Of a stretch of DNA of 14,479 nucleotides, positions 1-14,479 are shown piece by piece. A program made the translations under genes and the position numbers. This stretch comes from a virus. The notes under the pieces are model-generated. The model was not told the DNA's origin and ran no database searches. It saw only the letters and a list, made by a program, of their open reading frames with translations. Every line of letters begins with the position of its first letter. Position 1 is the first letter of the stretch. The stretch is from UHGV virus genome UHGV-0177056; one strand, given 5' to 3'.

Positions 1-49
1 TGGTTATTGCTGATTAGCTAACAGCACACGCCCCGCCAAAACGAGGCGC

Positions 50-697
50 TTATGCTGATTTCTTGTTTACAGGCTTAGTTTCTTGCTCCGGTGTGACGGG
101 AACGCGATCACCTGGTGTTCCAGCACAGAAAATGGCTTTGGCGCGGCGCAAAATCTCTTTGTCATTTTCCTCATCGCCAGCTAATGCCATGCAAACAGCG
201 TCTTTAAGCGATTGCCTGATGTTCAGGCTTTGAATGGCCTTTCTTTGCTCCTCAAGTTCGCTATCGGCTTGCTTAGTTTGCCTGGTGGGTTGCTGTAGGC
301 GTTCCAAGATTCCTTTAATGCCCATATCGCATATTGCACTTATCAACTGTTCCTTATCTTCTGTGGACGCTCTTTTCAATAACTCGTTAACTAGCTCGTT
401 TGTAATATCGGGAGAAGGCTGCGCTGTTTGATTTGATAGAGAACTTTCTTTGGCGATGGGTTCCTCACCGTAAGCGAGCCAATTTAAGCTCACTTGTTCT
501 TTATCTGAGATAAGGCAAGCTATTTTAAAAGAAGGCTCTGTTCCTTTATGAATGTAGTTGTTTAAGGTTGAAGGGGGGATTCCCCAATCACTCGCAGCAG
601 TTCTGACACTACGGTTACCTATCAGCTTTACTAAACGCTCTCTGAAACTTTCTTTTCCCCGGTCGACAAAAGAAAAAGCATCATCATTTCTAGTCAT
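50..697 (-). CDS. Phage CI-type HTH repressor (occupies the position of the Mu c repressor but with a CI-like N-terminal HTH)
   Basis: 215-aa ORF reading leftward from the operator region. N-terminal segment (SFRERLVKLIGNRSVRTAASDWGIPPSTLNNYIHKGTEP) looks like a phage CI repressor helix-turn-helix. RBS GAGGAAAG about 6 nt upstream of the ATG on the minus strand. Divergent from ner/A/B as in Mu-like phages. Confidence 0.7.
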   Translation of the reverse strand: MTRNDDAFSFVDRGKESFRERLVKLIGNRSVRTAASDWGIPPSTLNNYIHKGTEPSFKIACLISDKEQVSLNWLAYGEEPIAKESSLSNQTAQPSPDITNELVNELLKRASTEDKEQLISAICDMGIKGILERLQQPTRQTKQADSELEEQRKAIQSLNIRQSLKDAVCMALAGDEENDKEILRRAKAIFCAGTPGDRVPVTPEQETKPVNKKSA

Positions 698-879
698 TTT
701 TTCTTTCCTCTATAACTTATTGATTTTAATTACAAAAACCATATAAAGACCAAAAGCAAAAAGAAAATACAAAGAAAGGGCTATTTTTGCTTTACATGAG
801 CTATATATGGATCAATACTTATATCCGAAGGGATAACACGGCGGTGTTATCCGCACGGATAACTTTTAAGGGTAACCTA
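698..879. promoter_or_regulatory. Divergent early regulatory region between repressor and ner (putative operators and promoters)
   Basis: 182-bp AT-rich intergenic region between divergent genes. Contains an A-tract (aaaagcaaaaagaaaatacaaagaaa), a TTTACA -35-like hexamer at 791-796, an IHF-like site ATCAATACTTAT around 811-822, and clustered GGATAAC half-sites at 822-863. Confidence 0.5.
822..863. promoter_or_regulatory. Cluster of GGATAAC inverted and direct half-sites (candidate repressor/Ner operator)
   Basis: Perfect inverted repeat GGATAACAC-GGCG-GTGTTATCC at 831-852, a further GGATAAC at 857-863, and TATCC-GAAG-GGATA at 822-835, all immediately upstream of the ner start. Confidence 0.5.
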
Positions 880-1116
880 ATGATGGTTAGAAATGAAGTA
901 ATGAACAAAGACTGGCACCGCGAGTACATCGTTGCCGCTGTGCACACCAAAGGTTTTACATTGCGTGAACTTTCTGAACGCGCTGGTCTAAAAAAAGACT
1001 CTTTAAAAAATGCACTGTATCGCTCATGCCCTAAATATGAACGCATCATAGCCGATGCTATTGGTGTGGAACCTGCGGAGATCTGGCCAAGCCGGTATGC
1101 CAGTAAGGCGGCGTAA
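880..1116 (+). CDS. ner: Ner-like DNA-binding regulator
   Basis: Translation from ATG 880 (MMVRNEVMNKDWHREYIVAAVHTKGF...EIWPSRYASKAA) matches the Mu Ner / Nlp pattern (DWHR...GLKK...LSNAL...IIA.A....P..IWPSRY). The track ORF starts at 787, but that start would lie across the operator repeats; 880 has an AAGGG RBS-like sequence about 8 nt upstream. Confidence 0.8.
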   Translation: MMVRNEVMNKDWHREYIVAAVHTKGFTLRELSERAGLKKDSLKNALYRSCPKYERIIADAIGVEPAEIWPSRYASKAA

Positions 1117-3158
1117 TGTTTTATTCAGCCAATGAGCTGGCCGGTCTTCCTGGTTTGCCCGGTACAGTTCAGGGGGTGCGCTGGACGCTCAATCGGATCA
1201 CAGAGACGCACCCGGAATGGAAGCGCAAGCGTGAAGGCACCAAAGCATTCGAGTATCACATCGACTGCCTGCCCGCTGAAGCGCAGAAAGTTTTACGTAA
1301 GCGCCTGACCCATCAGGTCCTGGAAGATACGCAACTGCCCGCCGTGGTTGAGCAGAAGGCAGTTAAAAACGTCGCCGTTCGCGATGAACTGGAGGTGATG
1401 GTCAAATGCCCGGAACTGGCATTACGCGAAGTCCAGGCACTGACTGACAAGCAAAAGGCCATCGCTGATGCGCGGATATTGCTGGCTACTGAAGTGCATA
1501 AACTGCGTGAATACGCCGGAATGACAAGGAAGGCCGCGTTAAAGCACATCGTTGATGGTGTGCGCATGGGGGCGTTACCTGACCGCATTATCGAAGCAGC
1601 TAATACTGCAAATGCACGTCAGGGAAAGCGAACCGGTGTCAGCACAGGCAGCCTGGATAGTTGGTACTCCAGCTGGGTGATGGCGCGCGGTGATGCCAAT
1701 CAGTTACTGGCGTTACTGGCTCCCGGTCATCATAAGGGAACACCGTGGGAGCAGGTCTGGTGGTTGAGCGATTTCTTTATGTTCTATCGCTCATGGAAGC
1801 GCCCGACCGTTGAATATGCGTATCGCGAGTTTTCAGCCTGGTGGCATGAAAAACACGCGAACGATGCGGGAATGCTGGCGGCACTGCCTTCAGTTCACGC
1901 AGTAAGACGGGTGTTAAGCAGCGTCCCGGTGATTGTTAAAGAGCGTTTCCGCTCCACAGGTTCAGCCTGGCGTTCGCTCAATCCCTTTGTGCGGCGCGAG
2001 TGGACATCATTACCGGTTAATGCGGTATGGGTCGGGGATGGTCACTGTATGAAAATGACCGCGTTTAACCCCCTGACCGGCAATATTTTCCGGCCAGAAG
2101 TGACGCTGGTTATGGATGCAGGACAACGCTTTATTGTGGGCTGGTCACTGTCCCTGTCGGAGAACGTGATAGCCGTTGCTGATGCGTTACGTTACGGCAT
2201 GGCACAGCACGGGATACCGCTGATTTATTACTCCGATAACGGGGGCGGCGAAAAAAACCTGGTGCTTGATGCCGATATTACCGGGATTCTGCCCCGTCTG
2301 GGTGTGGAACATCACACGGGGATACCAGGTAACCCGCAGGGGCGCGGGGTGATTGAAAGGGTTAACAAGGAAATACCCAAAGACGTGGCCCTGAGTTTCC
2401 AAACGTACTGCGCAAGGGATGCAGACAAGGAAACCGTAATGATGCAGCAACGGATTATGCAGTCAGCCATTAAGGCCACCCACAAAGGGAAAGAGCTGAC
2501 AAAACGGCAGGTTAAGGCGAGGGATGAAATCCCTACCTTTGAGCAACTGATGGCAGCCATAGAGCTGGAGGTCAGACGCTATAACAACCGGCCACACAGC
2601 AGCCTTCCTCGCAAAGAGGATGGCGAGCATTACAGCCCGGCAGCGTATCGCCGGAAACTGATAAAAGAGCAGAATGTTGAAATTGATTTCCTGTCGCCGG
2701 AAGAACTGCATGAAATGTTCAGGCCGGAAGTGACGCGCAAAACATTTCGCGGGGAAATTCAGTTATTCAACAATATTTATTACTCATATGATCTGGCCGC
2801 AGAGCACGGGAATGAAGTCAGGGTCAGTTACGATATTCATGATGCAAACAGCGTCATTGTCCGGCGGGCTGATGGCTCTTATATCTGCGATGCCATCTGG
2901 AACGGTAACAAGGTTGATGCCTTCGCTAAACCAGTTATCGAACAAAAACTGGAGAAACGCGTCAAGGGCCGCATTGCACGGGCCACGCAGAAAATCGAAG
3001 AGGCTAAACGCGAGCTTACCCCGGCCATTACGCAGAAGCCTGACTTTAATCTGGGATATGGACTGGAACGCCTGGAGAAAAAGGAAAAAGAAGAACTTTA
3101 TTTATTCGCATCTGAACGCGAACGCAATTTAAAGAAAAACGGCACAAACAACCGTTAA
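1116..3158 (+). CDS. Mu-type transposase (MuA-like DDE transposase)
   Basis: 680-aa ORF directly after ner with TAATG stop/start overlap. N-terminus (ELAGLPGLPGT..GVRW) resembles the MuA DNA-binding domain; size and position match MuA. Acidic residues in VWVGDGH, YYSDNGG and GVIERVNKE are consistent with a DDE core. Confidence 0.85.
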   Translation: MFYSANELAGLPGLPGTVQGVRWTLNRITETHPEWKRKREGTKAFEYHIDCLPAEAQKVLRKRLTHQVLEDTQLPAVVEQKAVKNVAVRDELEVMVKCPELALREVQALTDKQKAIADARILLATEVHKLREYAGMTRKAALKHIVDGVRMGALPDRIIEAANTANARQGKRTGVSTGSLDSWYSSWVMARGDANQLLALLAPGHHKGTPWEQVWWLSDFFMFYRSWKRPTVEYAYREFSAWWHEKHANDAGMLAALPSVHAVRRVLSSVPVIVKERFRSTGSAWRSLNPFVRREWTSLPVNAVWVGDGHCMKMTAFNPLTGNIFRPEVTLVMDAGQRFIVGWSLSLSENVIAVADALRYGMAQHGIPLIYYSDNGGGEKNLVLDADITGILPRLGVEHHTGIPGNPQGRGVIERVNKEIPKDVALSFQTYCARDADKETVMMQQRIMQSAIKATHKGKELTKRQVKARDEIPTFEQLMAAIELEVRRYNNRPHSSLPRKEDGEHYSPAAYRRKLIKEQNVEIDFLSPEELHEMFRPEVTRKTFRGEIQLFNNIYYSYDLAAEHGNEVRVSYDIHDANSVIVRRADGSYICDAIWNGNKVDAFAKPVIEQKLEKRVKGRIARATQKIEEAKRELTPAITQKPDFNLGYGLERLEKKEKEELYLFASERERNLKKNGTNNR

Positions 3159-3176
3159 TTTAAAAGGTATTTAATT

Positions 3177-4070
3177 ATGAGTTTAATTACGCAATTAAAT
3201 GACGTAATGGCCCGTCGCGGCTATACGCAAACCCACGTCGCCCGTGCTATTGGTCGTAGCAGCGCCGTTATCAACCAGTATTTACAGGGTAAATATCAGG
3301 GCGATATGGCTGATATTGAAGAACGCATTTCTGCCTTTGTGACCCGTGAGCGGGAAAAGGAAAACAGCCGCCGTATTAAAGCGAAATTTGTTGCCACCGG
3401 TATGGCTGCCAAAGGACTGGAGGTGTTGGCCTATGCTCACCTGGAATGTGAAATCTGCGTACTGTATGGCGCGGCAGGTCTTGGCAAAACAATGATTCTG
3501 CGTGAATACGCCGCCAGAAACCGGGATGCGGTCCTGATTGAAGCCGACCCGGGCTATACAGCCAGAACACTGCTTGAGGAGCTGTGCCGCCAGCTGGGGG
3601 TAAAAGTTCGCGGCAATATCCACGAACTGATTGATGCATGTGTGCGAGAACTGCGTGATTCCGGTCGCCTGCTGATGGTGGACGAGGCTGAACTGCTCCC
3701 CTATCGCGCACTGGAGGTTCTGCGCCGTCTGCATGACAAAGCGGGTATCGGGATTGTCCTGGCGGGTATGCCACGCCTTCTGATTAACCTCAAGGGACGT
3801 CGCGGTGAGTTCGCCCAGTTATACAGCCGTGTGGCGCTGGCGCTTAACCTGGGCGATACGCTGTCGCAGGAAGATTTTAACCAGATAGCTACCGGGCTGA
3901 TGCCGGAAGCAGCAGAACCGGAAATCAGCGAGGCGCTCTACGCACGCTCACTGGGTAATGCCCGCCGCCTGTTCAAACTGGCTCGCGGTGTGTACCGGAT
4001 TTGTGATATCAGCGATGCACCGGTCAGTGTGCAGGCCATTGATAAATTCGCAGAAATGTTAATTCACTGA
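3177..4070 (+). CDS. MuB-like transposition ATPase (AAA+ target-DNA activator)
   Basis: 297-aa ORF after the transposase. N-terminal HTH-like segment, Walker A GAAGLGKT, Walker B LLMVDEAE. Position and length match Mu B. Confidence 0.85.
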   Translation: MSLITQLNDVMARRGYTQTHVARAIGRSSAVINQYLQGKYQGDMADIEERISAFVTREREKENSRRIKAKFVATGMAAKGLEVLAYAHLECEICVLYGAAGLGKTMILREYAARNRDAVLIEADPGYTARTLLEELCRQLGVKVRGNIHELIDACVRELRDSGRLLMVDEAELLPYRALEVLRRLHDKAGIGIVLAGMPRLLINLKGRRGEFAQLYSRVALALNLGDTLSQEDFNQIATGLMPEAAEPEISEALYARSLGNARRLFKLARGVYRICDISDAPVSVQAIDKFAEMLIH

Positions 4071-4309
4071 TGGAGAACAAGATGATGGACAAGCAGACCA
4101 TTAACGCCGTCCGTTCCCGTGCCCGTGTGGCCATCCACACCACCGGCGGTCGCGTAACTGGGCAACATCACCGTTTACCTGTGGTTTATGCCTGCCCGCC
4201 CGTGGGCGGCCCTGTATGGCCGGTAACGGAAATCATCCAGACATTCAGCGGCCTGCGCCGCGTGGTGAAAACGTCCTGTATCGACGGCTGCACCGTCGTA
4301 TGGCAATAA
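4070..4309 (+). CDS. Hypothetical small protein (79 aa), early accessory region
   Basis: Only ORF covering this interval; TGATG stop/start overlap with the MuB-like gene. Gly/Pro/Val-rich translation, no recognisable motif. Confidence 0.35.
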   Translation: MENKMMDKQTINAVRSRARVAIHTTGGRVTGQHHRLPVVYACPPVGGPVWPVTEIIQTFSGLRRVVKTSCIDGCTVVWQ

Positions 4310-4321
4310 GAGGAAATCAGA

Positions 4322-4537
4322 ATGGCGGTTAAGTTAGAAGTAATTATCTATACCGATGAAAAAGGCTGTGTTTTAACCCAGACCACGGGGAGTTATTCGA
4401 AGGACGGAGCTTCCGAAAAGGAGTTTCAGGTGGCAACAAGATTACATGATGCTATCAAGGAAACGCTCAGAAATGACTATAACGGCGTGAATCTTTTTTC
4501 TGAAAATGTTGCGCCTCGCGCACATAACACACATTAA
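4322..4537 (+). CDS. Hypothetical small protein (71 aa)
   Basis: Strong RBS AAGAGGAAA 6 nt upstream of the ATG. Same strand and spacing as neighbouring genes. Confidence 0.55.
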   Translation: MAVKLEVIIYTDEKGCVLTQTTGSYSKDGASEKEFQVATRLHDAIKETLRNDYNGVNLFSENVAPRAHNTH

Positions 4538-4566
4538 TCTGTAAATATCACTGAGGTAATTTAATT

Positions 4567-5211
4567 ATGACGACTGAAAATAAAGTTAAGCAATATACAA
4601 AAAATAAAGTGCAGGAAGGCTACTGGGTTGATGCCCGTGGTGTGATGACGCCTGAAAGTCTTATCAAAGATATTGACCGCGACCGTGAGCAGCTGGTCGG
4701 TGAGCTTGTGGAGATGGTGATTGCTGCCTCTGCCTCACTGCGTGAACTGAAACTGCGTGCGTTTGGTGATATTCAGGCATTTATTGACCTGTCGGCGGAG
4801 AAATACGGCGCTGTGAAAGGCGGTAAAAAAGGGAATATCACACTTTACAGCTTTGACGGGCGTTACAAGATTCAGCGCGCCATGCAGGACCGTATCGCGC
4901 TTGATGAACGCATTCAGACCGCGAAGGCACTGATTGATGACTGTCTGGCTGACTGGACGGAAGGAGCGCGCCCTGAAATTAAAGCCATCATCAGTGAAGC
5001 ATTCAGCACGGACAAGGAAGGCAACATTAACACCGGGCGCGTTCTGGCTCTGCGTCGTCTCGATATTACGGAGGAACGCTGGGATAACGCCATGAAACTG
5101 ATTGGTGAAGCCGTCCAGGTAATTGGCAGCAAAAGCTATATCCGCGTGTATGAGCGCGTCGGTGATTCTGCTGAATACCGCGCAATCCCGCTTGATATTG
5201 CAGGGGTTTAA
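4567..5211 (+). CDS. DUF3164-like protein typical of Mu-like phage accessory regions
   Basis: 214-aa ORF with GAGGT RBS. Size and position in a Mu-like early region fit the DUF3164 family; the family assignment is from memory, not a search. Confidence 0.6.
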   Translation: MTTENKVKQYTKNKVQEGYWVDARGVMTPESLIKDIDRDREQLVGELVEMVIAASASLRELKLRAFGDIQAFIDLSAEKYGAVKGGKKGNITLYSFDGRYKIQRAMQDRIALDERIQTAKALIDDCLADWTEGARPEIKAIISEAFSTDKEGNINTGRVLALRRLDITEERWDNAMKLIGEAVQVIGSKSYIRVYERVGDSAEYRAIPLDIAGV

Positions 5212-5212
5212 C

Positions 5213-5446
5213 ATGCATCAGGATATCAAAGAGTACAGGGCCGGGAACCGTTGCGCAGCGTATTCGCTGGGCGCGTCCAGAGCAGAACAACGCGGCGATT
5301 ATGCCGAAGCTGAAAAACTGTGGCGTAAGGCAGCACAAAGCCCGTGTAGTACCCTGCGCCGCATCTGGGCGGAACACCGGGCAGAGTTCTGTGCCAATGC
5401 TCACCTGAAAAGATGGAAGCCGCCTCATGAACGCGAAACGCTTTAA
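5213..5446 (+). CDS. Small ANR-like regulator (78 aa)
   Basis: ATG at 5213 lies 2 nt after the upstream stop (5209-5211), so it is preferred over the track start at 5123, which would overlap the previous gene by 89 nt. Translation (RAEQRGDYAEAEKLWRKAA...RAEFCA) resembles ANR-family small regulators. Confidence 0.5.
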   Translation: MHQDIKEYRAGNRCAAYSLGASRAEQRGDYAEAEKLWRKAAQSPCSTLRRIWAEHRAEFCANAHLKRWKPPHERETL

Positions 5447-5618
5447 TCAGCTATATCCGCCAGGGACTCGCTTCATGCACATTGCACATCGGGCAGTGCG
5501 TGGTGGTCGGGTGGTAAAAACTGTTGCACCTGCCAGAGATTTTAAATGTGGTTGTGTGGTTGAAATTAATGTCGAGCCTTATTTCGTTAAAGTCGAAACA
5601 CTGAAAGCACCGCATTAA
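5427..5618 (+). CDS. Hypothetical small basic protein (63 aa)
   Basis: Start overlaps the end of the previous gene, same strand; no recognisable domain. Confidence 0.4.
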   Translation: MNAKRFNQLYPPGTRFMHIAHRAVRGGRVVKTVAPARDFKCGCVVEINVEPYFVKVETLKAPH

Positions 5619-5647
5619 TTTAATTTGTTTTTAATTGTTATTTAAAA

Positions 5648-5681
5648 CAGGCGTAAACCCGCAGGGGCTGGCTTACGCCTG
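5648..5681 (-). terminator. Putative intrinsic terminator between convergent genes
   Basis: Perfect 9-bp stem CAGGCGTAA (5648-5656) / TTACGCCTG (5673-5681) with a GC-rich loop. On the minus-strand transcript the hairpin is followed by UUUUAAAU, so it would terminate the 5759-5977 gene; it may also act on plus-strand read-through. Confidence 0.5.
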
Positions 5682-5758
5682 AATCTGAGGAAGTTTATTT
5701 ATGAATATTGCTAAGCAAAAAAAATTCGCCCGCGAAATTAATCTGACAATCGTTTGTT

Positions 5759-5977
5759 TTAATCGTCTTGCGACCAGTTCTCAATCGACAGCAGATGTTC
5801 ATCCAGCGCCGCAGCCAGAACGAACTCCCCACGTTCCTGAAGGCCGTGCTGGAAGTTGCGTAATTCAGAATCCAGGGCGCTGAGGTTCAGACAGCCATTT
5901 TCTGAAAGCTGTTTAACCAGAAAGCTCCACGCAGCTTTGTTAGCAGTAATTGCTGCCGCAATTTCATCATCAATCAT
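5759..5977 (-). CDS. Reverse-oriented small acidic protein (72 aa), function unknown
   Basis: Minus-strand ORF with strong RBS (AGGAG, 6-nt spacer) and the downstream hairpin terminator. About 14 acidic versus about 5 basic residues. Only the repressor shares this orientation in the window. Confidence 0.55.
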   Translation of the reverse strand: MIDDEIAAAITANKAAWSFLVKQLSENGCLNLSALDSELRNFQHGLQERGEFVLAAALDEHLLSIENWSQDD

Positions 5978-6065
5978 TTTTTAACTCCTGATTGGGTATG
6001 TTGGGGCAGCGATTATGACAAGTGTTTTGTGGTTATAAGTTGATCAAAAACAATGAGTTACAACC
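5978..6065. promoter_or_regulatory. Divergent intergenic region (candidate promoters for the 5759-5977 gene and the 6066 operon)
   Basis: 88-bp non-coding gap between divergently oriented ORFs; no consensus promoter hexamers could be assigned by eye. Confidence 0.3.
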
Positions 6066-6776
6066 ATGAAAGATAAATACATTGCCAAAATCAAAAAACT
6101 GTTACGCCTTGCCAGAGGAACATCAAGCCCGGAAGAAGCCGCTAACGCTATTGCAAAAGCCCAGGCTTATATGCGCCAGCATGGTATCAGCGAAAACGAC
6201 GCGGAATTGTTCGACATTCAGGAAGCTGCCAGCGCGGGTGCGCCGAGTGACGCCAGTACGCCGCCGCGTTATATGCACATCCTGTGTGACCTGGTCTGTA
6301 AAGCCTTCGGTGTCGAGTGTTACATCTCCGGCGAATACCGGGCTTCTGGTTCACTCAAACGTTACGTGCGTTTTTATGGTCCTGACAGCCGCCCGGAAAT
6401 CGCGGCTTACGCGTTTGATGTGCTTTCCCGTCAGATGATGGCAGAGCGCAAGAAATATCAGGATAAACACTGCAAACGTTGTGGTCCGTCCACGCGGGTA
6501 GCCCGTGGCGACCAGTTCTGCGAAGGCTGGGTCTTTGGTGCCCGTGATGTCATTGCGGTGTATGACGTCTCCCCGGAAGAAAAAAGCCGCCTTGAGCTTT
6601 ACAGAAAGAACCTGCACAGCACTAAGGGACTGCGCGACGGGGATATGCGCACAGCTAAAGCGTGTCGGGGTGCAGAGTTTGCCGCTACTGCCGGTTTTAT
6701 CGCCGGGAAGAACGCCAGGCTGCATCAGGGGGTTAATGGTCAGAGCAACAGACCGCTGGCACTGGGGAGGGTGTAA
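6066..6776 (+). CDS. DUF2786-like phage protein
   Basis: N-terminus KIKKLLRLARGTSSPEEAANAIAKAQAYMRQHGI matches the DUF2786 signature (KI.KLLALA..T.NE.EA..A..KAQELM..H) common in prophages. 236 aa. Confidence 0.7.
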   Translation: MKDKYIAKIKKLLRLARGTSSPEEAANAIAKAQAYMRQHGISENDAELFDIQEAASAGAPSDASTPPRYMHILCDLVCKAFGVECYISGEYRASGSLKRYVRFYGPDSRPEIAAYAFDVLSRQMMAERKKYQDKHCKRCGPSTRVARGDQFCEGWVFGARDVIAVYDVSPEEKSRLELYRKNLHSTKGLRDGDMRTAKACRGAEFAATAGFIAGKNARLHQGVNGQSNRPLALGRV

Positions 6777-6778
6777 CG

Positions 6779-7006
6779 ATGGCTTTTAAACTTCTTAGTG
6801 TTACCGAAGCAATATACCAGCCGCCCGGAGAACGCCACGAATACAGGATGAATGACGGTAGCGCGGTGGTTGAGTTCCCCGGATATCCGGGGGCTTCCCG
6901 GTGGCGGTTCTATGACAGTGTGGGACGTCGGATTATTAAAAGAACCGTGCACAACAATATGAAGGCTGCCGTAGAACGTCATAAGAGAAGGTTTAACTGC
7001 AAATGA
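6779..7006 (+). CDS. Hypothetical protein (75 aa)
   Basis: GGAGGG RBS 8 nt upstream; start 2 nt after the upstream stop (translational coupling). Confidence 0.55.
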   Translation: MAFKLLSVTEAIYQPPGERHEYRMNDGSAVVEFPGYPGASRWRFYDSVGRRIIKRTVHNNMKAAVERHKRRFNCK

Positions 7007-7233
7007 AAATTGAATTTTATGACCATGGGGTCACCGCAACTATCACTATTTCTTGTTGGTTCTGGGAGTTCCACCGTTACTTCAGAGTTGTAGATGCTGC
7101 GCTGTTTGTTGCACCGGGAGCGTTACATCACAGTGGAATCGGTATTGTTATGAACACTGTCATCAGCGGTAAAACGGTCCCGATGTTGCGGGCGTTTAAA
7201 GTGGCAAAACAGGAGGCTGGCAATGGTCATTGA
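7003..7233 (+). CDS. Hypothetical protein (76 aa)
   Basis: ATGA start/stop overlap with the upstream gene; hydrophobic stretches; weak RBS. Confidence 0.4.
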   Translation: MKIEFYDHGVTATITISCWFWEFHRYFRVVDAALFVAPGALHHSGIGIVMNTVISGKTVPMLRAFKVAKQEAGNGH

Positions 7234-7537
7234 TAAAACGATAACGATAGATGTAGCCATGAATACAGGTCTGGCGCTTATCGGTTATGGCTATATCACT
7301 TTTATGTCATTCAGGTGGTTGATTTCTTCGCTCTTTAAGCAGCGTGAAAAACATCGTTGTAAAGACAAGCGCGCGAAGGCGCTAAATGCGTTTAATGACG
7401 CTTTTGATATTGACCATATGCAACAGGGCGACCCCGCACGCGTAATTACCCGGGGAGATATCGTAATTCTTGTGTACCGGAATGAAAAAAATGAACAGGA
7501 GACAACCAGTGAGTCAGCAAACCAGAATAAGCGATAA
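7223..7537 (+). CDS. Hypothetical single-pass membrane protein (104 aa)
   Basis: Strong AGGAGG RBS 6 nt upstream. Hydrophobic segment GLALIGYGYITFMSFRWLISSLF followed by a basic stretch (KQREKHRCKDKRAK), suggesting N-out/C-in topology. Confidence 0.6.
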   Translation: MVIDKTITIDVAMNTGLALIGYGYITFMSFRWLISSLFKQREKHRCKDKRAKALNAFNDAFDIDHMQQGDPARVITRGDIVILVYRNEKNEQETTSESANQNKR

Positions 7538-7673
7538 GAGTCTGACCAGACTGATTGCCGATGCGGACAAGGTGCTGGAGCGGAACTCCCCCGTTGCCGA
7601 TGAGGAATGGTGGCAGGATTTCCGGGCTGCAATGCTGGAACTTCAGGAACGTCGTCGGGAGGTGTTGAAGTGA
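7509..7673 (+). CDS. Hypothetical small protein (54 aa, GTG start)
   Basis: GTG at 7509 preceded by GGAG with a 7-nt spacer. The track ORF begins at TTG 7470, but the RBS supports 7509. Overlaps the upstream gene by 29 nt. Confidence 0.45.
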   Translation: MSQQTRISDKSLTRLIADADKVLERNSPVADEEWWQDFRAAMLELQERRREVLK

Positions 7674-7939
7674 GTGAATTAAAGTGTCGAATTAATGGCA
7701 ATCAGATAGAACCGTGTGCGGTACTGGCAAAAGCACTCGAATATGGAAATCCAGCCTTTAAGAGTAAAGGCATATTTATCCCGGAACGCGTGAATATAAA
7801 CACCGGCGAGCCAGGCTTAGACATTGCTCAAATTCACTCCGGCCAATATGTCGGTCGTGGTGTTGCCATGTGTTTTTGCCCGTTCTGTGGTGAAAGTCTG
7901 AAAACATGGAAAAAGGAGGCAACCAGTGAGCGAGATTAA
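7670..7939 (+). CDS. Small Cys-containing protein, possible zinc ribbon (89 aa, GTG start)
   Basis: GTG at 7670 overlaps the upstream stop (GTGA) with GGGAGG upstream. Cys at residues 6 and 16 plus a C-terminal CFCPFC cluster. The track ORF starts at 7607, but that stretch is Gly/Ser-rich and overlaps the upstream gene. Confidence 0.5.
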   Translation: MSELKCRINGNQIEPCAVLAKALEYGNPAFKSKGIFIPERVNINTGEPGLDIAQIHSGQYVGRGVAMCFCPFCGESLKTWKKEATSERD

Positions 7940-8492
7940 CTATCAGGCACTGCGTGAGGTGGCAGAGGCCGCGAAGGGGGATACGACGTGGCAGAACCTA
8001 CAGGCTTTTCATGCTGCGGCTACGCCGGAGGTTGTGCAGGCGTTGCTGGATGAAAACGAAAGACTGTGTCGCGATCTGATAGCTCGTAATGGTGAGATTG
8101 AAGGGCTTCGGGAGTGGGCAGAAGAACTGGAGGCACGGGAGGTGGCTTTGCCAGTAGCGTCATGCATTGTTGAAGATGGATGCATGTGTGTTGATGGGTT
8201 CAGTGAGTATGTAGGTCACTCGCTATCTGATGGAATGCATGAGCTTTATGCTGCCCCGCCAGCGTCGGTAGTGCCGGAAGGACTAGTTAAAGCAGTGCGT
8301 TTCTATGAACAGGTATCGCTACACAGACCGGCGAACTGTCCGATGGTCTGGTTTTTAACGGCACCATTCATAAAAACTTTGAGCTGCGTCTGCCGGTCAT
8401 GCGTGATAACGGGCAGGCACTGGAAGAAACTGAAGAACGCTTTCAGACAGTGGACGGCTTCGCGGCGGATTATTACTACCGCTGTGCGGTAA
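7926..8492 (+). CDS. ead/Ea22-like protein, N-terminal region; C-terminal ~60 codons of the ORF are of doubtful coding nature
   Basis: GTG start with GGAGG RBS. N-terminus MSEINYQALREVAEAAKGDTTW resembles the lambdoid Ea22/ead family start (..QALREAAEKAT.GEW). After about 8300 the translation turns Cys/Arg-rich and non-protein-like, while the chaperone-like frame opens. Confidence 0.5.
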   Translation: MSEINYQALREVAEAAKGDTTWQNLQAFHAAATPEVVQALLDENERLCRDLIARNGEIEGLREWAEELEAREVALPVASCIVEDGCMCVDGFSEYVGHSLSDGMHELYAAPPASVVPEGLVKAVRFYEQVSLHRPANCPMVWFLTAPFIKTLSCVCRSCVITGRHWKKLKNAFRQWTASRRIITTAVR

Positions 8493-8689
8493 TGGCGGCA
8501 ACGCTGGTCCGTCTGGGGGATATTCCGCAGGAAGAACTGACGGCGGAGCTGTTGCACGACAACATGACGCCGGAAGATTTTAATATTCTGCTGGCATCAC
8601 GCAACGTCCTGAAGGTAAAGCGGAGCGGCGGGAATCCCGGCTCGCCGGACTCCGGCTCGCAGTCCTTATCCTCGGGCGCTACGGAATAA
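8309..8689 (+). pseudogene. Tail assembly chaperone-like reading frame lacking an N-terminal start (5'-truncated, or expressed from internal ATG 8399)
   Basis: Frame is open from 8309 with protein-like translation (LVFNGTIHKNFELRLPVMRDNGQALEE...LVRLGDIPQEELTAELLHDNMTPEDFNILLA), but no ATG/GTG/TTG occurs before 8399. Position immediately upstream of the tape measure is typical of a chaperone. Family resemblance is by pattern only. Confidence 0.45.
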
Positions 8690-8703
8690 CTGAAGAACAA
8701 ATC

Positions 8704-8862
8704 ATGACCATGAGCCGTCCCGAGCTGGACGGCTGGCTTGCCGCCGTTGACAGGCTGAACGGCGGCGGCTCAGGAAGAAAGGACACCTCACAGACCACCC
8801 GCCAGTCATTTAAATCCCTCAGAAAGAAACGCAGAAAAGGTAAACAGAAAAATGGCCGGTAA
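8704..8862 (+). CDS. Small ORF in the -1 frame relative to the chaperone-like gene (possible frameshift extension or independent small basic protein)
   Basis: The -1 frame is open from 8584 through 8862, overlapping the chaperone 3' end and the tape measure start. ATG at 8704; translation MTMSRPELDGWLAAVDRLNGG... with a Lys/Arg-rich C-terminus. This geometry matches chaperone long-form arrangements. Confidence 0.35.
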   Translation: MTMSRPELDGWLAAVDRLNGGGSGRKDTSQTTRQSFKSLRKKRRKGKQKNGR

Positions 8863-10246
8863 TTTCAAAGTTGGCATGACCCTGACTGCGAAGGACGAAG
8901 CCTCGCAGGTTCTGGAAAAGGGACAAAAACAGGTTATCAAAGCCACCGAAGGTGTAACAAAGGCAACCCGGAAGGCAGGCGCAGAGCAGACGCGTACCGG
9001 GCAGGAAAGCGTTAACAGCACGAAAAAGGCGGCAAAAGAGATACAGCGTGCCGCCCGTGCCCGGGAAACGCTCGGTATTCGTGCAGAACGCGAGATCCGG
9101 CGTGAAATTTATCAGACGGTTGCCAGCTATAACCGTCTGGCCCGCGCCGGTTTTGAATCTGCGCAGGAGCAGGAGCGCGCCATGCAGGCCACCCGGGAAA
9201 AAGCCCGGGCACTCAAGCGTGAACTGGATGGCGTCACTCAGGCTCAGATGAAGATGGCGAAAACGCCTGTTATCCCTGAACGGGGGCGTTTTGCCCGTGC
9301 GGCTGCATTTGGCGGGAATGCCGTGACAATAGGCGGCGGAATTATGGCAGGGGCCGCCATTATGACGCAACCAGTCAGAAATCAAATGAGTTATGAACGT
9401 CAGCTCAGCATGATGGCGAACACGGCGTTCAGTGATGGTGGTCTGGAAGGCAGGCAGTTTGGGCGTGAAAAGCTGAAAAACAGTATCCGCGCGGCGGTAA
9501 CGTATGGTGGCGGAACGAAAGAGGATGCAGCTGAAGCAATGAATGAGATGTTGGCCAGCGGCGCTTTTTCCTGGGATACCGCGAATAATCTCTTACCGCA
9601 GATTATGAAATTTGCTACTGCATCCGGCGCATCTCCACGCGATCTGGTCACTATGGCGGCCAAAGCTAAACAAACATTTGGACTGACAGATGACGACCTC
9701 CCGGCCATGTTTAATATGGCTGTCGCAGCAGGTAAAGCGGGTAATTTTGAGCTACGGGATATGGCGGAATATCTTGGACCTCAGATGGCGTTAGCTGGTA
9801 ACGCCGGAATGAAAGGACTGGATGGACTCCAGAAATTACTGGCATTTAATGAGGTCGCAGGGATTGCCGCAGGCAGCAGCAGTGAAGCAGGTAATAACGT
9901 TGTAAACCTGCTGGCCAAACTTTTCAGTAGTGAATCAGCAACAAGGGCGAAAAGCATCACGATTGATGGCAAAGGTATTGATCTACCTGGTACGTTGACC
10001 CGAGCTATGGAAAACGGCATTGATCCGATAGAAGCATTTTCACGCCTCACTGATAAAGTCACCGCGAACAACAAACAATATCAGGAGCTTCAGAAGCGTC
10101 TGGCAGCAACAAAAGACAAAGGCCAGCAGGACAAAATCCTAGAGTCTATGGCGAAAATTCTTGAGGGGTTCGGTGTTGGTGAGCTTGTTGGTGATATGCA
10201 GGCACTGAAGGCAATCCTGGCTTACTGCACCTTTAAATACCGTTAA
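8852..10246 (+). CDS. Tail tape measure protein (short, 464 aa)
   Basis: Coiled-coil-like Ala/Lys/Glu/Arg-rich N-terminus, Gly/Ala-rich hydrophobic segment (AAAFGGNAVTIGGGIMAGAAIM), and a core-like motif FELRDMAEYLGPQMALAGNAGMKGLDGLQKLLAFNEVAGIAAGSSSEAGNNVVNLLAKL. Position is upstream of the baseplate hub genes. Confidence 0.8.
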   Translation: MAGNFKVGMTLTAKDEASQVLEKGQKQVIKATEGVTKATRKAGAEQTRTGQESVNSTKKAAKEIQRAARARETLGIRAEREIRREIYQTVASYNRLARAGFESAQEQERAMQATREKARALKRELDGVTQAQMKMAKTPVIPERGRFARAAAFGGNAVTIGGGIMAGAAIMTQPVRNQMSYERQLSMMANTAFSDGGLEGRQFGREKLKNSIRAAVTYGGGTKEDAAEAMNEMLASGAFSWDTANNLLPQIMKFATASGASPRDLVTMAAKAKQTFGLTDDDLPAMFNMAVAAGKAGNFELRDMAEYLGPQMALAGNAGMKGLDGLQKLLAFNEVAGIAAGSSSEAGNNVVNLLAKLFSSESATRAKSITIDGKGIDLPGTLTRAMENGIDPIEAFSRLTDKVTANNKQYQELQKRLAATKDKGQQDKILESMAKILEGFGVGELVGDMQALKAILAYCTFKYR

Positions 10247-10250
10247 CAGC

Positions 10251-11102
10251 ATGATTAAAAAAGCCCAGACAGTGCGTGCCACACTGGTGAATACCCTGCT
10301 GTCGTTCAAAAGTGATTTTGTCTCCACTGTCGATAATATCGTGTCACTGGCAGGCGAACCCGGAAAATTTATCAATGGACTGGCAGAGGTGCTGGAAATC
10401 CACACATCAGATGTCGGGCAACCGGTGCCGGTTCTGCAACGTGTTGATTCTGCCACCCGGACCGGGTTGGCAGGAGAGACGACCGTCGCCAGTTCTGCGA
10501 CAGTGATGAACTGCTGGAATAAGGTCATCACTGATATGGATGAATTTGTTGCGCTGCCTGTTGCCCTGGTCAGTGGCGATAAAGTACCGGAGGTGGTACT
10601 TCCTGCGGATGCCTCGCCAGACGATGTGCAGGATGTGAAAGCAGTTTACGCAACACAGGCCGCATCTGAACTGGCCAGTGTTGCAATGGCGATACTGGTT
10701 GATGATGCGCAGTCAGAACAGCTTATACCGGCGGATATCGGGCGACTGGTCGGGGATGTGCGCACCCGCTTACAGGCTGCCATCACGCTGTTCCGTGAAC
10801 GCTATGAAGGCGAACGCGAACGGATAACCGAAACCGCATCACCGCTGGGGCTGATGTACCCGGAAATCATTCAGAGCATGAAAAACGTGGCGGCATCCGT
10901 GCAGGATGTCGGCCTGCTGGTTCTGTCACGCCGCCCACCGCTGATGCAGAAACAGGTGCAGGCGGACAGCTGTCTGCTGTTGCTGGCGTGGCAGTGGTAC
11001 GGTGATTACAGTCGTGCGGCAGAACTGCAACGTCTGAACCCGCAGCTGCGTGACCCGAACAACATAACCGCCGGGGTGGTCATTAATGCCTACGCAAAAT
11101 AA
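10251..11102 (+). CDS. Tail protein with C-terminal LysM/tail-protein-X-like domain (positional equivalent of Mu gp43/N)
   Basis: 283-aa ORF starting 4 nt after the tape measure stop. C-terminus (DSCLLLLAWQWYGDYSRAAELQRLNPQLRDPNNITAGVVINAY) matches the P2 gpX pattern D.L..I...YYG.......L..NP.L. Confidence 0.65.
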   Translation: MIKKAQTVRATLVNTLLSFKSDFVSTVDNIVSLAGEPGKFINGLAEVLEIHTSDVGQPVPVLQRVDSATRTGLAGETTVASSATVMNCWNKVITDMDEFVALPVALVSGDKVPEVVLPADASPDDVQDVKAVYATQAASELASVAMAILVDDAQSEQLIPADIGRLVGDVRTRLQAAITLFRERYEGERERITETASPLGLMYPEIIQSMKNVAASVQDVGLLVLSRRPPLMQKQVQADSCLLLLAWQWYGDYSRAAELQRLNPQLRDPNNITAGVVINAYAK

Positions 11103-12297
11103 CGAAGACAAAATCAGCCTGGTCATTGCCGGAAGGTCGCATTCTGACTGGAACAGTTATCGTATTGACAGCGATTTCCTGAAAGCTGCCGACGGCTGGC
11201 AGCTTCAGCTGGGGCTGCCTGAAAAGGTGTTCCCGGCGGATATCGTCCGGGGCGCACAAATCCGGTTGCAGGTGGGAGACGAAACGGTGCTCAGTGGGCG
11301 CATAGACAGCGTGCGCCGCAGTGTATCCCGTCAGAGCTGCACGCTGACCCTGTCCGGGCGTGATGATGCCGCCATCCTGGTGGACTGTGCCGCGCCAGTG
11401 TTCAGCGCCAACCAGCTGACGCTGGACGAGGTCATCGACAGGATTGTCAGACCGCTGGGGATACAGCGCATCCGTATTCAGGCGTCCGGTGTGTCACGTA
11501 ATGACAAAGTCGTTATTGAGCCGGGGATGCGTGCGTGGGATGCACTGGCCAAAGCTGCCGCCGGTCGCGGCTTATGGCCGTGGTTTGAGCCTGACGGGAC
11601 GCTGGTTGTGGGTGGCCCTGACTACACCACCACGCCGGTGGATACGCTGATTCTGAAGCTGAACGGCACCGGGAACAACGTGATGGAGCTGGACGATACC
11701 CGGTCCATTAACGGCTGTTTCTCCGAACTTACTGTGCTGGCCCAGAGCCACGCCCGCCGCGCAGACAGCAAGAAACAGGTGGCCGTGGTGCCGCTGGATA
11801 TCTGGAACGAGGACGGCAGCGTGCGCACATTGTCCGGGCAGGACAGCGGTAATACGGACAGTGGCCAGACAGGCATTCATAACATGAAAGCCGTTGCCAC
11901 CGACCCCACCGTGGATTATTACCGCCCGCAGATAATCACCCAGGGCGACACCAGCAATCTGGAGCAGGTGAACTGGCGCGCAAAAAAAATGATGAGTGAT
12001 GCCCGCCTGTCGGGGCTGGATATCGTCGCGCTGGTTGCAGGTCATCGCACGGCAGATGGTGTTCTGTGGCAGCCCGGCCAGCGGGTGCGGATTGTCAGCG
12101 AACTCCACGGCATTGATGCCATCTTTTTCCTGATGGGGCGTGAGTTCAGCGGAGGCCGAAACGGGCAGACAACCCGGCTCCGCTTTAAAGAGGACGGCGT
12201 GTGGATACCTGATGCCTTCCCGCGCGAGAAGAAACGCCATCACCGCAGGGGCAAAAAGAAAAAAGAGGTCGCCATTGTTAAGGTCTGGGAGAAATGA
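11086..12297 (+). CDS. Late control gene D-like tail protein (Mu gp44/P-like baseplate hub)
   Basis: 403-aa ORF; size, position after the tape measure and X-like protein, and overall pattern fit the gpD/gp44 family. Unusual Lys/Arg/His-rich C-terminal tail. Confidence 0.8.
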   Translation: MPTQNNEDKISLVIAGRSHSDWNSYRIDSDFLKAADGWQLQLGLPEKVFPADIVRGAQIRLQVGDETVLSGRIDSVRRSVSRQSCTLTLSGRDDAAILVDCAAPVFSANQLTLDEVIDRIVRPLGIQRIRIQASGVSRNDKVVIEPGMRAWDALAKAAAGRGLWPWFEPDGTLVVGGPDYTTTPVDTLILKLNGTGNNVMELDDTRSINGCFSELTVLAQSHARRADSKKQVAVVPLDIWNEDGSVRTLSGQDSGNTDSGQTGIHNMKAVATDPTVDYYRPQIITQGDTSNLEQVNWRAKKMMSDARLSGLDIVALVAGHRTADGVLWQPGQRVRIVSELHGIDAIFFLMGREFSGGRNGQTTRLRFKEDGVWIPDAFPREKKRHHRRGKKKKEVAIVKVWEK

Positions 12298-12947
12298 TGT
12301 GGGACAAAGTTAATCAGCGCGTACAGCAGGCACTGGCCGCCGTTCGCCAGGCATTCAGGGTGGTGACCGGTACGGTGGACAGTTCGACCAAAGTACAGCT
12401 GCTTCAGCTTAACGGGCTGGCAGGCGAACAGCTGGACGGTGCGGAGTATTTTCAGCATTACGGCCTCACCACATCCCCGCCGCCCGGCTCAATGGGTATT
12501 GCCGTTCCGCTGAACGGCAATACCTCTCATACTGTCGTGGTGGCCACAGAGCACGGCGCATATCGTCTGACGGAACTGAAACCCGGGGAAGTGGCCCTGT
12601 ATACCGATGAAGGCGCGAAAATCGTACTGAAGCGCGGACGGGTTATTGAAACCGAATGTGACGTTTATCGCGTGAAATGCAAACGCTACGAGGTTGAGGC
12701 AGAGGAGAACGCCACATTCACGACACCGTTACTGACAGCCAGTGACAGGCTGACGGTGGAAGGCAAAATCACCGGCAACGGTGGCATGGCCATCAGTGGG
12801 GGCAAGGGATACACTGCCACCTTTGAAGGCGATATCAACCATGTGGGTGGAGTGATTACCTCCGTTGACGTCACCATTAATGGCGTTAAAATCGGAACGC
12901 ACAAACATCCAACCCCACACGGCATGTCTGACACGCCGGTTAATTAA
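12294..12947 (+). CDS. Baseplate assembly protein V-like (Mu gp45-like spike)
   Basis: 217-aa ORF with ATGA overlap to the upstream gene. N-terminal OB-fold-like region and a Gly-rich beta-rich C-terminus (GKITGNGGMAISGG...INHVGGVITSVDVTINGVKIGTHKH) typical of gpV spike proteins. Confidence 0.8.
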   Translation: MMWDKVNQRVQQALAAVRQAFRVVTGTVDSSTKVQLLQLNGLAGEQLDGAEYFQHYGLTTSPPPGSMGIAVPLNGNTSHTVVVATEHGAYRLTELKPGEVALYTDEGAKIVLKRGRVIETECDVYRVKCKRYEVEAEENATFTTPLLTASDRLTVEGKITGNGGMAISGGKGYTATFEGDINHVGGVITSVDVTINGVKIGTHKHPTPHGMSDTPVN

Positions 12948-13000
12948 GTGCTGAACACCCTCACCTGATTCTGACCTGTCCATGCTGCCAGACTGGCGGC

Positions 13001-13339
13001 ATGGACCAGACGATTTCACCTGCAACCGGCGACTACGAACGCCGTCGGATTTATACCCTTCATAACGCGGTTTATCTGCGACTGGCGACGCCGCTTGGCA
13101 GTTACTGGGCGGATGCGTCGCTGGGGTCACGCCTGCACGAGCTGAAGCGGGAAAAAGACGTTTCCCGTGTTCATAAGCTTGCGGCGCAGTATGCCAGCCA
13201 GGCACTTCAGCCCCTGCTCGATGACGGGCGGGCAAAATCCATTACCGTTGACACAAAACCGGGGCAGCGCGGCTGGTTGTTGCTGTTAATCACCGTCACG
13301 GATAACGCGGGCACACCGCAGACGTTTGAACACCTGTGA
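13001..13339 (+). CDS. Mu gp46-like baseplate protein
   Basis: 112-aa ORF; GSRLHELKREKDVSRVHKLAAQYASQALQPLLDDGRAKSITVD...WLLLLITVTDNAGTPQTF fits the gp46 family pattern (SRLW.L.R.K.T...L....YA.EAL.WL.DDG.A..V.V......L.L.V....G....F). Confidence 0.75.
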   Translation: MDQTISPATGDYERRRIYTLHNAVYLRLATPLGSYWADASLGSRLHELKREKDVSRVHKLAAQYASQALQPLLDDGRAKSITVDTKPGQRGWLLLLITVTDNAGTPQTFEHL

Positions 13340-13349
13340 GGATTATGTA

Positions 13350-14429: not shown

Positions 14430-14432
14430 TAC

Positions 14433-14479
14433 ATGAATACGGTTGATTTATTTCGTGCCATGTTACCACCGGTCAGCTA
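14433..14479 (+). CDS. Start of gp48-like tail protein (DUF2313-like), truncated by window end
   Basis: ATG at 14433 with GGGAGAG RBS; translation MNTVDLFRAMLPPVS contains the LLPPVS-type N-terminal motif I associate with Mu gp48-like proteins. Only 15 codons visible. Confidence 0.5.
   Translation, partial: MNTVDLFRAMLPPVS

Follow-up and report, generated by a model that had tools for sequence, protein, structure and literature searches.

A 14,479-nucleotide stretch of viral DNA (UHGV-0177056; referred to as the window) begins with seemingly undamaged genes for Mu-type transposition inside what looks like a damaged prophage. The sequence-only reading had proposed that such an element may persist as a repressor-controlled transposable element rather than as a phage. 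This raises the question whether the integrity of the transposition genes reflects a new way of life or a prophage that was disabled only recently. As set out below, the explanation that we consider probable as a whole is that the window represents the left-hand 14.5 kb of a Mu-like (transposable) prophage measuring approximately 17.8 kb, which belongs to a family very common in Escherichia coli, and that this is an ordinary decaying prophage without sign of spread as a transposon.

Location and extent of the element

Metagenome contig L004 matched the window at 100% identity, the window corresponding to L004:1150-15628. On this contig, the element was inserted inside ydjO, adjoining cedA, and its left end was located at L004:887. 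The end thus lies upstream of position 1, as anticipated from the window itself, at a distance of 263 bp. The terminus begins with TGTGGGGTAG and carries three TTCTGGGC repeats at +18, +92, and +143, which are putative transposase-binding sites. With 2 mismatches in 263 positions relative to the prophage of E. coli E2348/69, the left end is intact. The left flank is formed by ydjO, and the predicted target duplication is GAAT. Tail-fibre genes follow directly past the right edge of the window on L004. On every contig, the sequence of the derivative breaks off within the tail-fibre inversion region, which leaves a gap of about 370 bp to the expected right end. A right end of the TG...CA type with repeated motifs was observed in relatives and would be present in this element as well, the contigs of which show the left end only. 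The features of the window are listed in Table 1.

Table 1. Features of the window, with positions counted from its first nucleotide
Feature	Position	Strand	Basis or remark
Left-end interior, 3' of the repressor stop codon	1..49	.	Terminus 263 bp further upstream on L004
Prophage repressor, 215 aa, CI-type HTH	50..697	-	PF07022, phrog_3037
Divergent regulatory region, repressor/ner intergenic	698..879	.	Putative; function from position only
Promoter-like site	791-819	+	Within 698..879; putative, function from position only
Inverted repeat GGATAACAC..GTGTTATCC	~832-853	.	Within 698..879; putative, function from position only
ner-like early regulator, 78 aa	880..1116	+	PF13693, phrog_769
Mu-type DDE transposase A, 680 aa	1116..3158	+	PF02316 (HTH_Tnp_Mu_1), rve core, PF09299 (Mu-transpos_C), phrog_310 (E=5e-195)
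MuB-type AAA+ target-DNA activator B, 297 aa	3177..4070	+	AAA_22, TniB, phrog_296 (E=2e-104)
kil homologue (septation inhibitor), intact	4082..4309	+	phrog_2679 (E=7e-36)
Early ("semi-essential") region: orf71, DUF3164, ANR-like, DUF2786/DUF7168, DUF4752, small ORFs	4322..7925	+	ORF and domain calls
Antisense 72-aa ORF in early region	5759-5977	-	
Chimeric ORF, 188 aa; N-terminal ead/Ea22 part fused across junction 1	7926..8492	+	Junction mapping
Remnant of tail assembly chaperone genes, upstream of tape measure gene	8316..8851	+	Alignment to L003
Tape measure protein, truncated: residues 1-458 (of 757) followed by six codons out of frame	8852..10246	+	
gpN-like DNA circularization protein gene, C-terminal remnant, 283/449 codons, from internal ATG	10251..11102	+	
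Baseplate gene, gp44/P-like	11086-12297	+	
Baseplate gene, gp45-like	12294-12947	+	
Baseplate gene, gp46-like	13001-13339	+	1-bp deletion at 13332 relative to sister contigs
Baseplate gene, gp47/baseplate J	13350-14429	+	

The transposition and control genes

The MuA-like and MuB-like ORFs had been described as full length and free of internal stops, and this description was confirmed with respect to coordinates, domains, and Walker motifs. Alignments to MuA and to retroviral integrase identified D308, D374, and E414 as the catalytic residues of A. A MAFFT alignment had placed MuA E392 opposite an alanine, and V416 and E419 are substituted relative to E2348/69, so that an inactivated catalytic glutamate was considered. 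This idea was rejected, because the motif GVIE414RVNK aligns with the catalytic glutamate motif of retroviral integrase and because the same A protein is found in prophages at no fewer than nine other insertion sites; the MAFFT alignment was shifted. Inactivating catalytic substitutions relative to MuA, named beforehand as evidence that would speak against a working transposase, were thus not found, and the A and B proteins are those of intact-looking relatives at many sites. The B gene is the immediate 3' neighbor of the A gene, as is characteristic of Mu-like prophages, and its product carries Walker A (G98-AAGLGK104T) and Walker B (D169/E170) motifs that were aligned to K106 and D173/E174 of MuB.

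A showed no amino acid difference from its counterparts on contigs L010 and L012, and B and kil were likewise identical to those copies. When A and B were compared with those of prophages bearing gemA, mor, and lysis genes at nine other sites, 0 amino acid and 0-2 synonymous differences were counted; these relatives are judged intact-looking as far as they are sequenced. Relative to E2348/69, about 41 synonymous and 11 non-synonymous differences were present in A, a ratio that points to purifying selection on A within the family. Because identical proteins occur in intact-looking relatives and the catalytic triad as well as the Walker motifs are in place, A and B are very probably functional.

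The control genes gave a similar picture. The nucleotide sequence of ner was 100% identical to those of E2348/69, L010, and L012, and the repressor protein was identical to that of E2348/69 and to those of prophages at 10 further sites, in agreement with the earlier view that both genes are intact. This very repressor allele appears in 727 index blocks, and intact-looking prophages at many sites bear it. No BLASTP similarity was found between the repressor and Mu c or between the repressor and the N terminus of the element's own transposase. The idea of a LexA-like, SOS-cleavable repressor led to a search for an S24 peptidase domain or a structural match by sequence in this protein, and none was found. 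The arrangement at the left end, with a divergent repressor followed by ner-A-B, is a feature of Mu-like transposable prophages.

Two deletions took out lysis, head, sheath, and tube genes

A base-by-base comparison with the intact prophage of E. coli E2348/69 delimited two deletions. Deletion 1, at junction 8314/8315, removed 16,615 bp with a 2-bp microhomology (TA) and joined the ead/Ea22 gene to the tail chaperone gene, which lost its first 10 bp. The genes gemA and mor and those for lysis, terminase, portal, head, sheath, and tube were lost with it. Between the two junctions, window positions 8314-10225 aligned to positions 25728-27639 of L003 at 99.4% identity. Deletion 2, at junction 10222-10225, removed 1,368 bp with a 4-bp microhomology (TTAC) and fused the tape measure gene, at codon 458, to the middle part of the gpN-like gene, truncating both genes. 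The element no longer has a complete Mu-like set of head, lysis, and contractile-tail genes; the prophage is defective, and virion production is impossible.

The supposition that morphogenetic genes are lacking was correct for head, sheath, tube, and the like, but not for the baseplate genes kept across 11086-14479 or for the tail-fibre genes seen on L004. A tailocin-like use of the kept tail genes was considered and rejected, because the element has neither sheath nor tube and lacks most of the tape measure.

Could the deletions be mis-joins of an intact prophage made during metagenome assembly? The window does match metagenome contigs whose ends fall within repeated or invertible sequence. 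However, the same junctions occurred in contigs from at least six samples and in three kinds of record (k119/k141, a NODE_ contig, and Logan contigs), and the clean 2-bp and 4-bp microhomologies are typical of real deletions. The exact 188-aa protein spanning junction 1 was present on 11 contigs, and the junction proteins together were found on 11-12 contigs, which derive from several samples and different assemblers; an assembly artefact is therefore extremely improbable. Furthermore, STEC308 proved to be an independent deletion derivative that lost a similar lysis-to-tail block and kept the early region, from which we deduced that such decay recurs.

Relationship to known transposable phages

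The prophage of E. coli O127:H6 E2348/69 (NC_011601, 2715935-2751670; 35.7 kb) is inserted in eutC, whereas the window element lies in ydjO. Both share the gene order, an identical repressor, and 97.7-99.4% nucleotide identity over all kept parts, and the E2348/69 prophage has the termini of the window family, TGTGGGGTAG...GAAGTTACA. They differ in that 16.6 kb and a further 1.37 kb are missing from the window element, which bears out the claim that the prophage is structurally defective. The A-B segment of the window is closer (at least 99.2%) to the sub-lineage L010-L019, whose immunity region differs, and the window element is thus a mosaic. Members of the family were found with more than 20 different flanks, as in near-random insertion, and the family is common in E. 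coli, its baseplate protein being listed in 3522 index blocks. A 5-bp target duplication had been expected, but all five complete prophages examined (5/5) had duplications of 4 bp.

The element shares with Mu the left-end layout c - ner - A - B - kil, a DDE transposase with Mu N-terminal DNA-binding and Mu C-terminal domains, a MuB-type ATPase, and baseplate genes (gp44-gp48). The TG...CA termini of the family, which carry three repeats on the left and, on the right, two direct repeats plus an inverted one, are also of the Mu kind. In contrast, A and B are only 24 and 31% identical to MuA and MuB, respectively, the repressor is a CI-type HTH protein unrelated to Mu c, and the family makes 4-bp instead of 5-bp target duplications. 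On these grounds, the element would be placed outside Muvirus (Mu sensu stricto). The nearest transposases in isolated phages, those of Pseudomonas VW-6B, Yersinia vB_YpM_Tongde, Klebsiella ST405-OXA48phi1.1, and Haemophilus SuMu, belong to the same family and matched A over more than 90% of its length, but with only 40-50% amino acid identity. No match to the early region of the window was found at the DNA level in a collection of 50,697 phage records, in which the E. coli family of the window element is without a sequenced isolate.

The element was met at a single locus

Every displayed contig that contains the deletion junctions and reaches the left flank had the same cedA-ydjO flank; this tally covers the contigs displayed individually, those collapsed as "similar places" standing outside it. 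Copies differed by at most two mutations in 14.5 kb, at positions 10945 and 13332. Among 5,426 complete E. coli genomes, neither the derivative nor an intact progenitor was present at ydjO. The junction of deletion 1 was found neither in JGI metagenomes nor in GTDB representatives, and the deleted element was not seen at a second locus in the complete genomes, the JGI metagenomes, or the GTDB representatives.

The right side was approached by prediction. An intact right side should read ...GAAGTTACA followed by GAAT-GGGAAGTGG (ydjO), and the predicted right junction, GAAGTTAC-N-GAAT-GGGAAGTGGTG, was not found in JGI metagenomes or GTDB representative genomes. The predicted chimeric ORFs across this junction (93 and 102 aa) were absent from a collection of 15 billion proteins. 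The plain 80-aa C-terminal ORF of YdjO does exist in that collection, and its top contigs were examined as candidate Mu junctions and rejected, because they carry ydjO pseudogenes of the frameshift or IS1 kind. When the baseplate J protein was used to look for the right end of the element, only full-length prophages at other sites were returned.

These results bear on the proposal that the element is an active, repressor-controlled natural mini-Mu that moves within and between genomes, is possibly packaged by helpers, and persists by transposing. The engineered mini-Mu and Mud derivatives are alike in composition (ends, c, ner, A, and B), differing in that the window element arose by spontaneous deletion and not by design. 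Such engineered elements transpose, and helper Mu can package them. The checkable requirements are all present, namely A, B, ner, the repressor, and a left end with three putative transposase-binding repeats; the A protein is that of relatives at many sites, and the abundance of the family means that helper phages could be frequent. Nevertheless, cedA-ydjO is the site of each displayed copy that extends to the left flank, the element is absent from the genome and metagenome collections searched, and the predicted right junction did not turn up in JGI metagenomes or GTDB representatives. Moreover, kil is kept and Mu-type replicative transposition after derepression kills the host, so that movement would not be neutral. 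Persistence as a repressor-controlled transposable element is without positive evidence, and we regard this reading as quite unlikely. The same low probability is assigned to the specific case in which the double-deletion element is transposition-competent and could be derepressed, replicated, and headful-packaged by an intact relative, satellite-like, together with adjacent host DNA. If this were true, the recurrence of similar deletions as in STEC308 would represent a favored route to such elements, and an element shown to move would be the natural counterpart of the laboratory mini-Mu.

A remnant kept for the host or a recent deletion?

Defective prophages such as the SfMu remnants in Shigella produce no virions after internal deletion and are inherited vertically (PMC4406740; PMC6379469). 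The window element resembles these remnants and the cryptic prophages of E. coli K-12 in both respects. Classic cryptic prophages are, however, much older, whereas the kept genes of the window element are still identical or near-identical to those of intact-looking relatives.

A remnant of this sort might be domesticated, i.e. kept for a benefit to the host, chiefly repressor-mediated immunity, once the genes for lethal lysis were lost. The idea that grounded prophages are favored has been put forward in the literature (PMC6379469). Immunity would be useful given how many intact-looking prophages carry this repressor allele, and STEC308 independently arrived at a similar state with its early region kept. 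On the other hand, the copies are near-identical and have no time depth, so that selection need not be invoked for their being kept; domestication would be expected to lead to the loss of kil, A, and B, whose expression does harm, yet all three persist; and the element is rare in databases. Domestication thus appears unlikely.

We favor recent decay. Two illegitimate, microhomology-mediated deletions would have "grounded" a Mu-like prophage in ydjO and left untouched the repressor-ner-A-B-kil module, which at the protein level is identical to that of circulating intact-looking relatives and hence very probably still works. The repressor would silence the early promoter, and with it A and B, and would confer immunity, and upon derepression A and B could catalyze transposition. 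In Mu-type phages, replicative transposition after derepression kills the host; here, derepression would presumably be harmful through kil and replicative transposition. The element would since have been inherited vertically at one locus. With no more than two mutations among the copies, selection has had no time since the deletion to favor or disfavor the transposition genes. The intactness of the genes thus most likely reflects the recency of the deletions and not a new transposon lifestyle.

The element offers a clean, datable case of the first step in the decay of a transposable prophage, at which virion and lysis genes are lost first while repressor, transposase, and kil are untouched. 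It also shows that, where a deletion is recent, genes that look undamaged within a defective prophage do not call for a functional explanation. Beyond such bookkeeping, the significance of the remnant is small, and a proper description may be merited more by its family, which is very common in E. coli and combines a CI-type repressor with 4-bp target duplications.

Gene content of the window

The genes of the window were assigned by ORF listing and profile searches, and its left end showed a Mu-type arrangement. Between the early and the baseplate genes, terminase, portal, capsid, sheath, tube and lysis genes were missing, as was mor. A 72-aa ORF at 5759-5977(-), antisense to the early operon, matched no Pfam or PHROG family and is a possible moron; the segment 5893-6059 in its region is present in E2348/69 and missing from the relatives at other chromosomal sites (L010-L019). 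Short stretches at 7669-7967, where a small ORF and the ead/Ea22 region lie, showed 88-98% DNA identity to P1/P7/SJ46-like plasmid prophages and lambdoid phages. They were the window's sole DNA matches in the phage collection searched and point to accessory genes swapped between unrelated phage types.

Features of the window and its aligned segments in the E2348/69 prophage locus (L003)
Feature	Window position	Strand	Evidence or counterpart
CI-type repressor	50-697	-	profile search
ner-like gene	880-1116		profile search
Transposase A, 680 aa	1116-3158		PF02316, rve, PF09299; phrog_310 (E=5e-195)
MuB-type ATPase B, 297 aa	3177-4070		AAA_22, TniB; phrog_296
kil homologue	4082-4309		
Run of small early genes	after kil, to ~8.3 kb		
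464-aa protein with tape-measure domain	immediately 3' of early genes		
Baseplate genes like Mu gp44, gp45, gp46, gp47	3' of tape-measure ORF		
Aligned segment	1-8315		L003 799-9112, 97.7% identity
Aligned segment	8314-10225		L003 25728-27639, 99.4% identity
Aligned segment	10222-14479		L003 29008-33266, 98.8% identity

Two deletions relative to the E2348/69 prophage

The best full-length relative was the Mu-like prophage interrupting eutC in E. coli E2348/69. The window aligned to it in three segments, and two deletions were thus deduced, bearing out the sequence-only reading of a structurally defective prophage. Deletion 1 (16,615 bp) has its junction, at a 2-bp microhomology, between the ead/Ea22 gene and base 10 of a tail chaperone gene; it removed gemA, mor, two holins, lysozyme, DUF1804, a methylase, terminase, portal, head genes, sheath and tube. 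In deletion 2 (1,368 bp), the tape-measure gene breaks off at codon 458 of 757 and continues, at a 4-bp microhomology, midway through the gpN-like DNA circularization gene. The resulting chimeric or truncated proteins were encoded on 11-12 contigs of the k119/k141, NODE_ and Logan types from several ENA and Logan samples. Because the same junction proteins recurred across samples and contig types, assembly errors were ruled out and the deletions are taken as real.

The STEC308 prophage (L002, NZ_CP091020) is an independent deletion derivative at yjiL/yjiK. Compared with L003, it has lost ~15 kb, reaching from the first of the holin genes to a point inside the tape measure gene, and 600 bp within the gpN-like gene (breakpoints on L002: 23458-23514 and 25242/25243). 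The left breakpoint of its 600-bp deletion (L003 29010) lies at most 3 bp from that on the right of deletion 2 (L003 29008), where the sequence reads GCCGTTAC|TG; this closeness may be a coincidence or reflect a local break hotspot.

Integrity of the transposition and immunity genes

A and B were full length; before database searches the transposition core had already been described as intact-looking, and the repressor and ner as intact. This description held. Alignment with MAFFT matched MuA D269 and D336 to D308 and D374 of A and misplaced the third catalytic residue. With phmmer, the A segment GNPQGRGVIE414RVN fell on the catalytic glutamate motif of retroviral integrase, giving spacings of 66 and 40 residues; no inactivating substitution of D308, D374 or E414 was found. 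In B, K104 and D169/E170 correspond to MuB K106 and D173/E174.

Comparative identity is the strongest argument that the transposition genes are sound. The exact 680-aa A protein was encoded at nine other chromosomal sites in prophages retaining gemA, mor and lysis genes, and the coding sequences there differ from that of the window by 1-2 nucleotides only, all synonymous; B, ner and kil were also identical. The exact repressor occurred in E2348/69 and in gemA/mor/lysis-bearing prophages at ten further sites. Against E2348/69, the A gene had 52 nucleotide differences, resulting in just 11 amino-acid differences. Since the family carries the identical protein at so many different sites, a defect in A is very unlikely. 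The transposition and immunity module is still pristine.

Mosaic immunity region

Window 327-800 (N-terminal half of the repressor and operator region) is of the E2348/69 type and had no megablast match in L010-L019, whereas the ner-A-B-kil segment (within 801-5892) was 99.2% identical to L010-L019 and only ~97% to E2348/69. The window is thus a mosaic, and immunity regions are swapped within the family. In Mu, repressor and transposase have a homologous N-terminal DNA-binding domain, and operator and enhancer overlap. The CI-type HTH repressor showed no detectable similarity to the transposase N-terminus (1116-1500) or to Mu c, and the Mu-style overlap may not apply to this element.

Termini and target duplication

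The window is 100% identical to positions 1150-15628 of an 84.8-kb metagenome contig (L004). Alignment of twelve different insertion sites placed the left terminus of the family at TGTGGGGTAG, which in L004 is at position 887, within ydjO and adjacent to cedA. The left end thus lies 263 bp upstream of window position 1, outside the window as had been supposed. The motif TTCTGGGC occurs at +18, +92 and +143 in the left 150 bp; at the right end of relatives it is found at +18 and +40, with a further copy inverted at +68. It does not occur anywhere within the 14.5-kb window. This layout mirrors the L1-L3 and R1-R3 end sites of Mu.

All contigs of the element ended in the tail-fibre segment, ~370 bp before the expected right end, and every search for the predicted right junction came back empty. 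Among relatives, the tail-fibre and assembly gene block was found in both orientations (L023 versus L024 and L029), like the G segment of Mu. In E2348/69, the adjacent invertase gene is a pseudogene of ~30 codons (L003 36061-36153), so inversion may require one provided in trans.

A 5-bp target duplication had been expected. In the five complete prophages with both ends seen (L002, L003, L021, L022 and L043; termini TG...CA), the duplication was 4 bp throughout (CATA, CACT, ACTT, GACA and GAGA), and a 5-bp reading failed in two. GAAT in ydjO is predicted for the window element. Mu duplicates 5 bp and B3 6 bp (PMC8705779), and no report of a 4-bp duplication for a Mu-like phage was found in the literature read.

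Mobility and age

Identical copies at other loci, which the sequence-only reading had suggested seeking, were not encountered: every displayed junction-bearing contig that reached the left flank carried cedA-ydjO, and neither the element nor its ydjO insertion was found among 5,426 complete E. coli genomes. Neither JGI metagenomes nor GTDB representative genomes contained the deletion junction. Only two differences in 14.5 kb, 10945 (T/C) and a 1-bp deletion at 13332, separate the window from sister contigs L005-L007. The latter truncates the gp46-like gene of the window lineage at its 3' end (112 instead of 116 aa), so that it is no longer coupled to the start of baseplate J. Because the copies are nearly identical, the double-deletion derivative must be very young, and selection need not be invoked to explain why A and B are intact.

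An intact core in a defective prophage is the part of the earlier interpretation that stands; for persistence as a transposable element, no evidence emerged from displayed contigs, complete genomes or metagenomes. A derepressed Mu prophage keeping A, B and kil kills its host even without late genes, which makes it hard to see the element living on comfortably as a transposon under repressor control. That the element is a still competent natural mini-Mu, open to mobilisation or packaging by a helper, is regarded as improbable.

In E. coli and Shigella without this prophage (L033-L042), ydjO is often a pseudogene through frameshifts or IS1 insertions, and an 80-aa C-terminal YdjO ORF was present on 652 contigs. 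Interruption of the gene by the prophage is therefore probably neutral.

Relation to known Mu-like elements

The element belongs to the E2348/69-type family, which is very common in E. coli (baseplate J protein listed in 3522 index blocks). The phage collection searched contained no sequenced isolate of this family. There, the nearest phage transposases were 40-50% identical to A, and the early region had no DNA-level match. The family differs from Mu in its unrelated repressor and 4-bp rather than 5-bp target duplication; A and B are only 24% and 31% identical to MuA and MuB. We conclude with good confidence that this Mu-like prophage was grounded recently and that its transposition and immunity module is intact. 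Mu-like prophage remnants and 'grounded' prophages in general are already well known (PMC4406740; PMC6379469), and the window element would be one more case of them.
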